Positions 35,063 to 62,943 of a stretch of DNA of 64,000 bases are shown here, piece after piece. The notes below the pieces were generated by a model that was not told the DNA's origin, made no database searches, and worked only from the letters and a program-made list of their open reading frames with translations. Source of the DNA: Escherichia phage VEc20; the sequence record MN022785.1, one strand, 5' to 3'. Every line of letters starts with the position of its first letter. Position 1 is the first letter of the stretch. A program made the translations under genes and the position numbers.

Positions 35063-35097
35063 CCAAAAAGCCCCAACCTTTTGGTCGGGGCTAAGAA
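35063..35097 (-). terminator. Rho-independent terminator (copy 1 of a repeated hairpin)
   Basis: Minus strand agccccgaccaaaaggttggggct followed by TTTTT; near-identical to the hairpin at 35596-35632. Confidence 0.7.
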
Positions 35098-35099
35098 TG

Positions 35100-35561
35100 T
35101 TATTTGATTTGTTTAGCAGACCAAATGCGGTCTTTGATGATTTTTTGGAGGTCTTCAACATACTCTAGGTCATGAGCATGTGGATTATCTTTGAAACTAT
35201 GAGCTCGCGCAAGTTTCTGGCCTTCGGTCTTAATTATCAAAAGTTCTTTAAGAATTGCTTCATACCTAGAGATAATTCCTTTAGCAATATTTTTTTCTTG
35301 TGCTGCTTTAGGGTCAGCCTTAGGAGCAGGTTTACCAGAAGGTTTTTCGAAAGCCGCGCCAGTAGCAACCAGGCTTTTCCAGGCGGTGGTAACATAGTTA
35401 CCCACAAAGCCTTCAGCTCTCATATCGTCGTAGAACTTGTACCGAGATTCGTCAGAAGCATCTTTATAAGAATATTTACCAGCTTTAATAGCAGCAGTTG
35501 CTACAGCGCGAACATCTGAAGCGGATGCTTCGGTCATTAAAAATTGAGCATAAGTTTTCAT
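35100..35561 (-). CDS. Internal-protein-like protein with capsid-targeting-sequence-like N-terminus
   Basis: 153 aa beginning MKTYAQF, compare the T4 IPIII capsid-targeting sequence MKTYQEFIAE; Lys/Ala-rich; flanked by the two repeated terminators. Confidence 0.6.
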   Translation of the reverse strand: MKTYAQFLMTEASASDVRAVATAAIKAGKYSYKDASDESRYKFYDDMRAEGFVGNYVTTAWKSLVATGAAFEKPSGKPAPKADPKAAQEKNIAKGIISRYEAILKELLIIKTEGQKLARAHSFKDNPHAHDLEYVEDLQKIIKDRIWSAKQIK

Positions 35562-35595
35562 TGTTATTTCCTGTGTTAATTAACTCATCTATTTA

Positions 35596-35632
35596 TACTA
35601 AAAAGCCCCAACCTTTCGATCGGGGCTAAGCC
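35596..35632 (-). terminator. Rho-independent terminator (copy 2)
   Basis: Minus strand agccccgatcgaaaggttggggct followed by TTTTT. Confidence 0.7.
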
Positions 35633-35639
35633 TTGCGGC

Positions 35640-35935
35640 AACCTTGTCGGGGTTCCACCTGCTAAGGCAAGTGTTTGTACGAAACGCCGGGATTCGAACC
35701 CGGTTATTAAGTAGTTGACGCTACTCAATATTTTTAAAAGGCCATATCTCGACCATATCCGAACGTTCCGTCAAAAACGCTACTCGGCTTACGGCAAAGA
35801 TATTTCCTCGAATCGATAATTCGGTGCGCCGTTTCTGCTGTGATAGTAAAGAGCCAGAACACAGTAAAACTGTGGGAGGAAACTATACTCCAGGGAACAT
35901 CAGTCCGACGACTTACCGGTAGCGACCCGGTTTCT
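35640..35935 (-). ncRNA. Putative stable structured RNA(s) with a tRNA-like T-arm (possible counterpart of T4 RNA species 1/2)
   Basis: No ORF; canonical T-arm CCGGG-TTCGAAT-CCCGG at 35687-35703 with a possible 7-bp acceptor pairing (35680-35686 with 35764-35770); followed by a terminator. Confidence 0.4.
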
Positions 35936-36285
35936 TAATATTCTTTTAAAGAATCAATATATTCACGGCGTTTACGCCACAAATCAATTGCTTCATACGC
36001 GGATTCAGCATTTCGAATTAGCCGGCATTTATGTAAAGACTTATGATTTTGATATTGTGTAGATAACGGAATTGTATCTAAAAGGTCTTTACGATCAAAA
36101 TATTCGTAACCATCTAAACCAAATGAACGATTTTTGAGAAATTGCCAATGACCATATTCGTTTTCGACATAAACATAATCTGCATGCTGATAAAGCAAAT
36201 TAATTACACGTTCAGAAATAACAGTATCATTATGATTAAAATAGAATGTTAAATCATGAACTACTAAATAAACATTACCTTTCAT
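35935..36285 (-). CDS. Hypothetical protein between tRNA-Arg and the structured-RNA region
   Basis: 116-aa ORF. Confidence 0.5.
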   Translation of the reverse strand: MKGNVYLVVHDLTFYFNHNDTVISERVINLLYQHADYVYVENEYGHWQFLKNRSFGLDGYEYFDRKDLLDTIPLSTQYQNHKSLHKCRLIRNAESAYEAIDLWRKRREYIDSLKEY

Positions 36286-36303
36286 ATTTTCCTCACTTAT
36301 AAT

Positions 36304-36379
36304 TGGTCGAGGCAGTAGGGATCGAACCTACGACCTAGGACTTAGAAGGTCCTTGCTCTTCCTTCTGAGCTATGCCCCG
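36304..36379 (-). tRNA. tRNA-Arg (anticodon UCU), CCA encoded
   Basis: Hand-folded cloverleaf: 7-bp acceptor with one G-U, T-arm GTAGG/CCTAC, anticodon loop CUUCUAA. Confidence 0.8.
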
Positions 36380-36383
36380 TAAT

Positions 36384-36459
36384 TGGGGTGACCGATGGGA
36401 GTCGAACCCATGACTACGAGAATCACAATCTCGAGTTCTACCAACTGAACTACGGCCAC
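36384..36459 (-). tRNA. tRNA-His (anticodon GUG), discriminator C, CCA encoded
   Basis: Hand-folded: T-arm ATGGG/CCCAT, anticodon stem CGAGA/TCTCG, loop UUGUGAU; G-1 not encoded. Confidence 0.65.
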
Positions 36460-36573
36460 ATTAATACCTACTCCAACAATCAAGATGTCTTCACACGAAA
36501 TTAAGAGAAGAGTGATCAGTTCAACCCCTATAATCGCGTCAAGTAGATATTAATGTGACAGTTGTCACAAATT

Positions 36574-36649
36574 TGGCGGACGTGATAGGATTCGAACCTA
36601 TAACCAATCGCTTAACAGGCGATCGCTCTGCCATTGAGCTACACATCCA
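36574..36649 (-). tRNA. tRNA-Asn (anticodon GUU)
   Basis: Hand-folded: T-arm ATAGG/CCTAT, anticodon stem ATCGC/GCGAT, loop CUGUUAA. Confidence 0.7.
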
Positions 36650-36652
36650 AAT

Positions 36653-36739
36653 TGGTGGGGAGTGGTGGAGTCGAACCACCCGAGTCGCAATGACAATGAA
36701 TTTACAGTCCACACCGCTACATCTACGGGATAACTCCCC
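36653..36739 (-). tRNA. Type II (long variable arm) tRNA, probably tRNA-Tyr (GUA)
   Basis: Perfect 7-bp acceptor, T-arm GGTGG/CCACC, 87 nt; anticodon loop CUGUAAA; D-arm and anticodon stem irregular. Confidence 0.55.
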
Positions 36740-36748
36740 AAATTAATT

Positions 36749-36823
36749 TGGTGGCCCTGGGTGGAATTGAACCACCATCTGGCGATTATGAGTCGCTTGC
36801 TTGAACCTTCCAGCTACAGGGCC
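36749..36823 (-). tRNA. tRNA with CAU anticodon (Met, or Ile if lysidine-modified as in T4)
   Basis: Perfect acceptor stem, T-loop TTCAATT, anticodon loop CUCAUAA. Confidence 0.75.
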
Positions 36824-36824
36824 T

Positions 36825-36900
36825 TGGTGCTGATTGACGGAATCGAACCGCCGACCTTCTCATTACAAGTGAGTTGCTCTACCTACTGAGCTAAATCAGC
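36825..36900 (-). tRNA. tRNA-Thr (anticodon UGU)
   Basis: Perfect acceptor, anticodon loop CUUGUAA. Confidence 0.8.
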
Positions 36901-36905
36901 AAAAC

Positions 36906-36995
36906 TGGCGGAGGCGATAGGATTTGAACCTATGAGTCGCCGGAGCGACTGCCGGTTTTCAAGACCGGTGCATTAAACCACTCTGCCACGCCTCC
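36906..36995 (-). tRNA. tRNA-Ser (anticodon UGA), type II
   Basis: 90 nt, variable-arm hairpin, anticodon loop CUUGAAA. Confidence 0.8.
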
Positions 36996-36997
36996 AG

Positions 36998-37071
36998 TCT
37001 CCGTGGCAGGATTTGAACCTACGACATTCTGCTCCCAAAGCAGACGCTCTACCAAACTGAGCTACACGGAG
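36998..37071 (-). tRNA. tRNA-Pro (anticodon UGG), CCA not encoded
   Basis: Anticodon loop UUUGGGA; 3' end 2 nt from the tRNA-Ser 5' end (Pro-Ser dimeric precursor as in T4). Confidence 0.8.
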
Positions 37072-37081
37072 TAAATTAAAT

Positions 37082-37155
<74 letters not shown>

Positions 37156-37160
37156 AAATT

Positions 37161-37247
37161 TGGTGCGAGAAGTGGGACTCGAACCCACAAGGAAATCATT
37201 CCGCAGCATTTTAAGTGCTGTGCCTTTACCAATTTGACCATTCTCGC
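37161..37247 (-). tRNA. tRNA-Leu (anticodon UAA), type II
   Basis: 87 nt, perfect acceptor, anticodon stem CAGCA/TGCTG, loop CUUAAAA. Confidence 0.8.
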
Positions 37248-37248
37248 G

Positions 37249-37321
37249 CTGGGAATAAAGGACTCGAACCTTTGCATCTAGCAGTCAAAGTGCTATGCCT
37301 TACCAACTTGGCTAATTCCCA
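37249..37321 (-). tRNA. tRNA-Gln (anticodon UUG), CCA not encoded
   Basis: Anticodon loop CUUUGAC; 3' end abuts the tRNA-Leu 5' end (Gln-Leu dimeric precursor as in T4). Confidence 0.8.

Positions 37322-59805: not shown

Positions 59806-62943
<3,138 letters not shown>

Follow-up and report, generated by a model that had tools for sequence, protein, structure and literature searches.

What is encoded in the stretch of about 300 nucleotides (nt) that follows the transfer RNA (tRNA) genes of Escherichia phage VEc20 and that contains no long open reading frame (ORF)? The phage is T4-like and belongs to Tequatrovirus, and the window that we analysed is a stretch of 64,000 nt of its DNA (sequence record MN022785.1). 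An earlier note, made from the letters of the window alone, had marked positions 35640-35935, read here on the minus strand, as a structured RNA region and had offered two explanations for it, a counterpart of the two stable small RNAs of T4 or a degenerate or insert-containing tRNA. The observation itself is real, because the interval holds short ORFs only, a T arm and a terminator, and because it folds better than shuffled sequences: the reverse strand of the whole interval was more stable than 100 of 100 shuffles (z = -4.15). The hairpin and T run at which the region was said to end exist as well, but they lie at 35627-35599, just outside the interval as first drawn, and the true extent of the region is 35938-35599. 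We put at roughly 0.8 the probability that this region encodes the small stable RNAs of the T4 family, rnaD (species 2 RNA) followed by rnaC (species 1 RNA), with the tRNA-like processing and the fold described below included; the roles proposed for them are much less certain.

Correspondence with T4 rnaD and rnaC

The interval can be equated with T4 rnaD and rnaC because its minus strand aligns from end to end with the annotated T4 record NC_000866. In that record two misc_RNA features lie directly 3' of the tRNA cluster, rnaD at 71053-71171, labelled 'small, stable RNA; species 2 RNA', and rnaC at 70908-71046, labelled 'species 1 RNA' (features T4s001 and T4s002 for rnaC and rnaD). Window positions 35938-35823 correspond to T4 rnaD and positions 35816-35678 to T4 rnaC, and the trailer and terminator that follow also align with T4. 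The rnaC homolog (35676-35816, minus strand) is made up of the equivalent of the T4 annotation, 139 nt of which 138 (99.3%) are identical to T4, and of positions 35677-35676, which complete an N-C-A tail; it lies on the strand of the tRNA operon, after the tRNA cluster and before the terminator of the operon. The rnaD homolog (35823-35938, minus strand; 116 nt) adjoins rnaC on the 5' side, is near-identical to T4 over its 5' ~50 nt and 3' ~25 nt, and was defined by alignment to T4 rnaD, by its blastn distribution and by the consensus fold of 14 variants. Between the two RNAs is a spacer of 6 nt, GAAUUA (35817-35822, minus strand; AAAUUA in T4), which would be a leader removed by RNase P. In other genera a spacer of the AAUUA or AAUCAA type stands between the CCA of the preceding tRNA and rnaC.

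The likeness to T4 thus extends over orthologous sequence, order, strand, the place after the tRNA cluster and the use of the same terminator, and the first of the two explanations, a counterpart of the stable small RNAs of T4, is upheld. VEc20 differs from T4 around and within rnaD. In T4 rnaD begins 2 nt after tRNA-Arg, whereas here an ORF of 116 amino acids (aa; phrog_3355) intervenes, and the ~45 nt in the middle of rnaD, which form its apex, are of another, T2-like type whose sequence is unrelated to that of T4.

The locus is an already known element. Species 1 RNA was reportedly sequenced in the 1970s by Paddock and Abelson. In T4 it contains a GTPsiC-type sequence and a long hairpin that is cut by RNase III in vitro, and it derives from a dimeric precursor that it shares with species 2 RNA. 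A 2022 dual-omics study validated T4 RNAC by Northern blot and classed both RNAC and RNAD as late RNAs with functions yet unknown (PMC9697503), and a 2010 review of T4 RNA also describes the biological roles of the two RNAs as unknown (PMC3014915). No functional study was found in the searchable literature on species 1 RNA, p2Sp1 and tRNA-like Tequatrovirus RNAs.

A megablast search with the flagged interval returned 759 phage records, almost all of them Tequatrovirus phages of Escherichia, Shigella and Yersinia, with 68 records at an identity of at least 99%. By blastn, rnaC was found in 747 phage records and rnaD in 745, of which 340 cover less than 80% of the rnaD query; among the partial matches listed, all span just the 5' ~48-53 nt. 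Altogether 26 distinct rnaC homologs, from 11 named genera, were gathered from GenBank phages, IMG/VR and metagenomes; among the genera with rnaC are Tequatro-, Mosig-, Karam-, Moon-, Gelderland-, Kagamiyama-, Teguna-, Kanagawa- and Marfavirus. A place within the tRNA array, at a tRNA-like spacing, is taken by rnaC in Karam-, Moon-, Gelderland- and Kagamiyamavirus and also in Erwinia phage COW86c, one example being the succession of tRNA-Trp, 5-6 nt, rnaC, ~3 nt and tRNA-Gly. Outside Tequatrovirus and Mosigvirus the genera that bear rnaC have no rnaD beside it. Dhakavirus JS10 (NC_012741, 700-890) presents the reverse arrangement, in which rnaD is joined directly to the trailer and terminator and rnaC is cleanly missing (GGCGCACAGA-ACACUUGCC). 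Because rnaC occurs without an adjoining rnaD, and JS10 has rnaD without rnaC, the two are independent modules that can be separated and that have different phylogenetic distributions.

A covariance-model search had been proposed as a check on the region. Rfam 15 has no family for rnaC or rnaD, at gathering scores or at E <= 10, and within 35500-36600 nothing besides the tRNAs reaches an Rfam gathering score, but a covariance model that we built for rnaC (R1) gave exactly one match in the window, at 158 bits; no second rnaC-like copy was detected in the window by this model. In ~100 unrelated viral contigs obtained with loose patterns the rnaC model matched just ordinary tRNAs, at 28 bits or less, and the loose pattern scan for rnaC-like RNAs yielded chance matches alone among the matches listed. 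When the species genomes of bacteria and archaea, 185,579 in all, were scanned by pattern, two matches turned up, with no match of the rnaC model at those positions, and the pattern scans of metagenomes and IMG/VR contributed a few new rnaC variants alone. The structural model of rnaC set out below, with its compensated kissing loop, and the independent distribution of rnaC and rnaD are found neither in Rfam nor in the searchable papers.

Fold of rnaC and rnaD

The structure of rnaC was counted across the 24 distinct sequences of alignment A3, where six helices comprise 54 pairs. Standard pairs are formed in 90.6% of the cells, compared with 37-46% when the 3' partners were slid by 1-3 columns, and changes on both sides occur in 28 of the 54 pairs. 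On four of five measures of covariation none of 500 shuffles matched the observed value; on the fifth, which counts further pair types, 21 of the 500 did. The minimum free energy of rnaC alone has a z of -4.05, and this independent fold is the same cloverleaf. Covariation shows that rnaC is a cloverleaf-like tRNA mimic of ~140 nt, and the conserved structure across relatives on which the earlier note had made its reading depend is present, in the form of this cloverleaf, in 24 distinct sequences.

The top half of the molecule resembles that of a tRNA. A 7-bp acceptor stem connects both ends of the RNA, its 5' strand, CGAUUCG (35809-35815, minus strand, like all rnaC features that follow), pairing with CGUUUCG (35680-35686). 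The third pair is A-U in 9 sequences and G-C in 15, and two central U.U mismatches, seen in 22 of the 24, are replaced by U-A and C-G in two Tegunavirus sequences. Contiguous with this stem is the 5-bp stem of a T arm, CCGGG/UUCGAAU/CCCGG (35687-35703), which is the canonical T arm already recognized as CCGGG-TTCGAAT-CCCGG; it is paired in 100% of cells and has two covarying pairs (G-C/U-A and C-G/U-A), so that compensatory changes are seen in both the acceptor and the T stem. The T loop of 7 nt has the form U-U-C-R-A-N-N, and its U55, C56, G57 and A58 are invariant, as is the closing pair G53-C61. The 3' tail, U-ACA (35676-35679), occupies the place of N73-CCA in a tRNA and has the layout N73-N74-C75-A76, being UACA in most genera, UUCA in Tegunavirus and UCCA in Marfavirus.

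The core of the T loop, GGTTCGAATCC, was found 10 times in the window with at most one mismatch, against 0.71 expected. Eight of these matches are in tRNA genes and one is the T arm of rnaC. The remaining match, GGTTCAAATCC at 62029-62039 (minus strand), is antisense within a 610-aa ORF (61111-62943, plus strand) and was dismissed as chance, in line with the 0.71 expected.

Two hairpins complete the cloverleaf. A long irregular hairpin of ~26 bp, H1 (35739-35808), stands in the position of the D arm, with double changes in 10 of 20 pairs, and a hairpin of 10 bp with a 6-nt loop, H2 (35705-35730), stands in that of the anticodon arm, with double changes in 8 of 10 pairs and 95.4% of cells paired. 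They are connected by an A-rich single-stranded linker, UUUAAAAA (35731-35738), whose AAAAU core is conserved in the alignment. The arms of H1 keep their lengths (33-34 nt on the 5' side and 30-33 nt on the 3' side) despite the replacement of their sequence in some genera. The linker measures 8-10 nt across homologs, the linker together with the 5' strand of H2 17-20 nt, and the 3' strand of H2 together with the spacer that follows it always 11 nt, within a total of 140-144 nt. Segment lengths that are conserved this tightly point to a defined three-dimensional architecture.

These features also bear on the second explanation, that the locus is a degenerate or insert-containing tRNA gene without a function of its own. 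The canonical T arm and acceptor stem of rnaC are what such a pseudo-tRNA would have, and there is a weak Rfam match to tRNA-Sec (17 bits, 35679-35771), while some GenBank records label the homolog tRNA-Met, tRNA-Phe or tRNA-Lys. Match and labels alike are founded on an internal pairing of ACGGAACG (35771-35764) with CGUUUCGU (35686-35679), the acceptor pairing about 90 nt apart to which the earlier note had drawn attention. This pairing does exist in VEc20, but we rejected it: it is broken in Tegunavirus and Marfavirus, whereas the stem of the 5' and 3' ends is compensated, and the conserved partner of CGUUUCG is the CGAUUCG of the 5' end. The tRNA-Sec match is the sole match of its clan and falls far under the gathering score of 47, ARAGORN made no call, and RF00005 was silent on 35600-35940 even at E <= 10. 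Neither a D arm, nor a 7-nt anticodon loop, nor a score that reaches the RF00005 gathering score of 29 bits was found, and where an anticodon loop would be there is a loop of 6 nt. Moreover, a decaying gene would not, across 11 genera, keep its segment lengths constant and maintain by compensation both 28 pairs and a tertiary contact. We consider a pseudo-tRNA very improbable.

The tertiary contact concerns the loops of the two hairpins. The apical loop of H1, UUGACG (35769-35774), is complementary to the loop of H2, CGUCAA (35715-35720), which is its exact complement, and the six Watson-Crick pairs between them are kept in 26 of 26 distinct rnaC homologs. The paired positions change together, from UUGACG/CGUCAA to UUGAUG/CAUCAA in Tegunavirus (C-G to U-A) and to UUGGCG/CGCCAA in Marfavirus (A-U to G-C). 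The complementarity ends exactly at the loop boundaries, and both loops are kept where the sequence of the H1 stem is wholly different, as in Gelderland-, Kanagawa- and Marfavirus and in one Moonvirus. If changes in the H2 loop (L2) were independent of those in the H1 loop (L1), the rough chance of two matched changes would be 1/6 for the position times 1/3 for the base, taken twice, or (1/18)^2 = ~0.003. This comparison of homologs shows a conserved loop-loop contact by which rnaC would be locked, and since the two loops would be paired with each other, the molecule would have no free anticodon.

Many GenBank genomes annotate tRNA-Met/Phe/Lys or hypothetical-protein coding sequences over rnaC and rnaD, some of the latter with predicted ribosome-binding sites, and the records that label rnaC or rnaD as such are few (T4, RB3, RB10, RB68 and ATK47). 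That the locus encodes small proteins, as these coding sequences imply, has in our view next to no likelihood. There are ORFs on both strands, but within 35600-35935 they are just 32-47 aa long and start mostly with GTG or TTG; substitutions preserve the pairing of the RNA and not the reading frames, and the curated T4 record has misc_RNA features at this locus.

For rnaD a consensus fold was computed with RNAalifold on the 14 variants, and 97.7% of its cells are paired, compared with 31-54% when slid. It includes a 5' hairpin, P1, formed by ACCGG, a GUCGCUA loop and CCGGU (35915-35931, minus strand), with a closing pair that covaries (A-U in 8 sequences, G-C in 5), and a predicted long-range stem in which GUCGUCG near the 5' end pairs with the 3'-terminal CGGCGCAC. 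A further, covarying stem lies below the hypervariable apical domain, of which there are at least four unrelated types (those of T4, of T2 and the window, the L052-type and that of JS10). In Tequatro-, Mosig- and Dhakavirus alike, the 5' and 3' parts of rnaD hardly vary. No tRNA-like feature was found in rnaD. An rnaD/rnaC intermolecular pairing of GAAACG with CGUUUC was considered and dropped, as it amounts to merely 6 bp and the RNAs occur independently.

Transcription, processing and possible roles

Both RNAs are on the strand of the 11 tRNA genes, which lie upstream at 36304-37321 (minus strand; ARAGORN and Rfam) and were counted into the same transcription unit. The intrinsic terminator of this operon (35599-35627, minus strand) has a 10-bp stem, a GAAA loop and a U run, and it is annotated as a terminator in phage D5505; on the transcribed strand our scan found the GC-rich stem-loop at 35627-35604, with 6 G-C among its 10 pairs, followed by a T run that ends at 35600. 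The T4 late-promoter motif TATAAATA is present upstream of the tRNA array at 37667-37660 and again directly after the operon terminator at 35597-35590, and it was not found between tRNA-Arg and rnaD. Such a placement of the motifs fits the view that rnaD and rnaC are the tail of the tRNA-operon transcript. In T4, transcription traverses the tRNA cluster and stops after the species I gene (PMC2330249).

Judging from this anatomy and from the T4 literature, rnaD and rnaC would form the 3' end of a polycistronic transcript of the tRNA operon that ends at the terminator (35627-35599). As in tRNA biology, rnaC may be excised by an RNase P cut before its acceptor stem and trimmed to the U-ACA tail by the machinery that forms tRNA 3' ends, and rnaD would be the structured piece that remains after the preceding ORF or tRNA and before the 5' cut of rnaC. 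In the cloverleaf of rnaC the acceptor stem is stacked on the T arm, with H1 in place of the D arm and H2 in place of the anticodon arm, and the stability of the molecule and a T/Psi modification would probably be owed to this tRNA-like top half.

A possible role for rnaC, which we suggest tentatively, could be that of a stable, non-decoding mimic of the top half of a tRNA, either binding or titrating a host or phage reader of the acceptor, T arm or elbow, or using its tRNA module as a scaffold for H1 and H2. Both RNAs might then modulate infection in particular hosts and be nonessential. Deletions of the tRNA region of T4 are viable in laboratory hosts. When the T4-like phage BW-1 was evolved on E. 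coli ECOR34, one convergent single-nucleotide polymorphism (SNP), located in the rnaD region, arose in all three lines, and relative bacterial growth (RBG), the virulence measure of that paper, rose from 0.17 to 0.98 (PMC12685909, 2025). Laboratory dispensability, the patchy distribution, the hypervariable apex of rnaD and the SNP selected on ECOR34 suggest that the RNAs have no core function but an accessory, host-specific one, for example in an interplay with defence systems. It is rather doubtful that this can be narrowed to a picture in which the lock of H1 and H2 would be a surface or dimer that engages a tRNA-directed or RNA-sensing defence component of the host, the apex of rnaD would be a determinant of host range under diversifying selection, and both would be host-specific RNAs of counter-defence or defence evasion.

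The two RNAs might also be thought of as small RNAs that act in trans, regulating messenger RNAs of the host or phage by base pairing through conserved single-stranded segments. They are abundant late RNAs, and they have conserved unpaired segments, namely the A-rich linker of rnaC and the CAGCAGAAAC segment and GUCGCUA loop of rnaD. We regard such a role as quite improbable. In rnaC the best-conserved loops are each other's paired and covarying partners, a blastn search of 5,426 E. coli genomes revealed nothing similar or complementary to the RNAs, though it is insensitive to short seeds, and no RNA of this kind has been functionally characterised in T4 (PMC3014915).

Several points weigh against the interpretation that we favour, in which this region encodes rnaD and rnaC with the processing, fold and roles described. 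The processing sites and the stability assumed for VEc20 would be extrapolations from T4, and a function is something that we infer, while reviews and recent papers call the roles unknown. The covariation of the two loops fits a contact within one rnaC molecule or between two alike, and an intramolecular contact needs H1, which at ~26 bp is much longer than the 10 bp of H2, to be bent back. The long-range stem of rnaD is invariant and so has no covariation behind it, and the rnaD fold of the window is no more stable than its shuffles (z = -0.19). Since rnaC is absent in JS10 and rnaD is absent beside rnaC in many genera, neither of them is universally required.

The low stability of rnaD relative to shuffles, its hypervariable middle, the lack of rnaC in JS10 and of rnaD in many genera, and the viability of T4 tRNA-region deletions would likewise be in keeping with the idea that both RNAs are inert by-products, structured spacers of the operon that accumulate through nuclease resistance. 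This idea has to contend with the strong purifying and compensatory evolution of rnaC, which includes the loop-loop contact and the invariant nucleotides of the T loop and junction, with the near-invariance of the outer parts of rnaD in the three genera named above, and with an SNP in the rnaD region that was selected three times and altered virulence (PMC12685909). We think it unlikely on the whole, and harder to dismiss for rnaD than for rnaC, where the compensated tertiary contact and the conservation of lengths are the strongest argument against both this idea and that of a pseudo-tRNA.

The surroundings of the two RNAs have features of their own. A 7-bp trailer hairpin, CACUUGC-CUUA-GCAGGUG (35656-35673, minus strand), lies between rnaC and the terminator and is nearly invariant in 10 trailer variants, with two single-base changes of which one disrupts a pair; these variants include that of JS10, a phage without rnaC. 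The next stretch of the trailer, AACCCCGACAAGGUUG (35628-35655, minus strand), is similar to the 5' arm, the loop and the beginning of the 3' arm of the downstream terminator, AGCCCCGAUCGAAAGGUUGGGG. It looks as if the terminator had been duplicated in part, and an alternative pairing is conceivable.

The 116-aa ORF between tRNA-Arg and rnaD (35935-36285, minus strand; phrog_3355, of unknown function) ends in a TAA stop that abuts the 5' end of rnaD, and a member of phrog_3355 also adjoins tRNA genes in a Karamvirus. On the other side, a 153-aa ORF (35100-35561, minus strand; phrog_2280, of unknown function) is flanked by two near-identical terminators, at 35069-35092 and 35604-35627. Relative to T4 this ORF is inserted after the operon terminator and carries its own terminator copy, as if a late-gene cassette had entered at this place and thereby doubled the terminator of the operon. 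Within the tRNA array, the 114-nt spacer between tRNA-Asn and tRNA-His (36460-36573, minus strand) is predicted to fold as a hairpin and a long stem, with z = -4.36, and 0 of 200 shuffles were as stable. There was no Rfam match to this spacer, which may be a further stable structured RNA or the remnant of an insertion.

Significance and comparison with known RNAs

The function of the T4 species 1 and species 2 RNAs, a textbook locus sequenced since the 1970s, is a question about 50 years old. The model of rnaC offered here, with a tRNA-like top half, constant arms and a 6-bp loop contact that has two independent compensatory variants, suggests direct mutational tests. Annotation pipelines routinely mislabel rnaC and rnaD as hypothetical proteins or odd tRNAs, an error that a curated RNA family would put right in hundreds of phage annotations.

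Among known RNAs, the tRNA-like domain of transfer-messenger RNA (tmRNA; RF00023) is similar to rnaC in that it has an acceptor stem and a T arm but lacks a normal D arm and anticodon, in having its 5' end at the expected RNase P site, and in the tertiary pairing that closes the rest of the molecule. Unlike tmRNA, rnaC has no tag ORF and no G3.U70, and in most genera it has no CCA. ARAGORN reported no tmRNA, and within the stretch scanned RF00023 gave a single match, truncated and of 9 bits, that lies on a tRNA. The bacterial Y RNA-like YrlA (RF02553) is likewise a non-coding RNA with a tRNA-mimicking module that contains a T-loop, and the 2014 work of Chen et al. is said to place it in some phages as well. 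The two are built differently, however: YrlA has its 5' and 3' ends in the Ro-binding stem and its tRNA-like part inside, whereas rnaC has its ends in the acceptor stem. No RF02553 match was found on rnaC at E <= 10, the sole match, of 17.7 bits (gathering score 69), being on tRNA-Arg/His.

The class II tRNAs (Ser, Leu, Tyr and Sec) share with rnaC an extra hairpin immediately 5' of the T arm, and the best non-self matches of the rnaC model are class II tRNAs of ~90 nt, at 20-28 bits, with H2 aligned to the variable arm; rnaC differs from them in having neither a D arm nor a 7-nt anticodon loop. The loop-loop contact itself has parallels in the L2-L3 contact of the purine riboswitch and in the kissing of ColE1 RNA I and RNA II, in which, as in rnaC, two loops have a Watson-Crick complementarity that is confined to the loops. 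In rnaC, in contrast to these systems, the two hairpins are very unequal in length and are borne on a tRNA-like scaffold.

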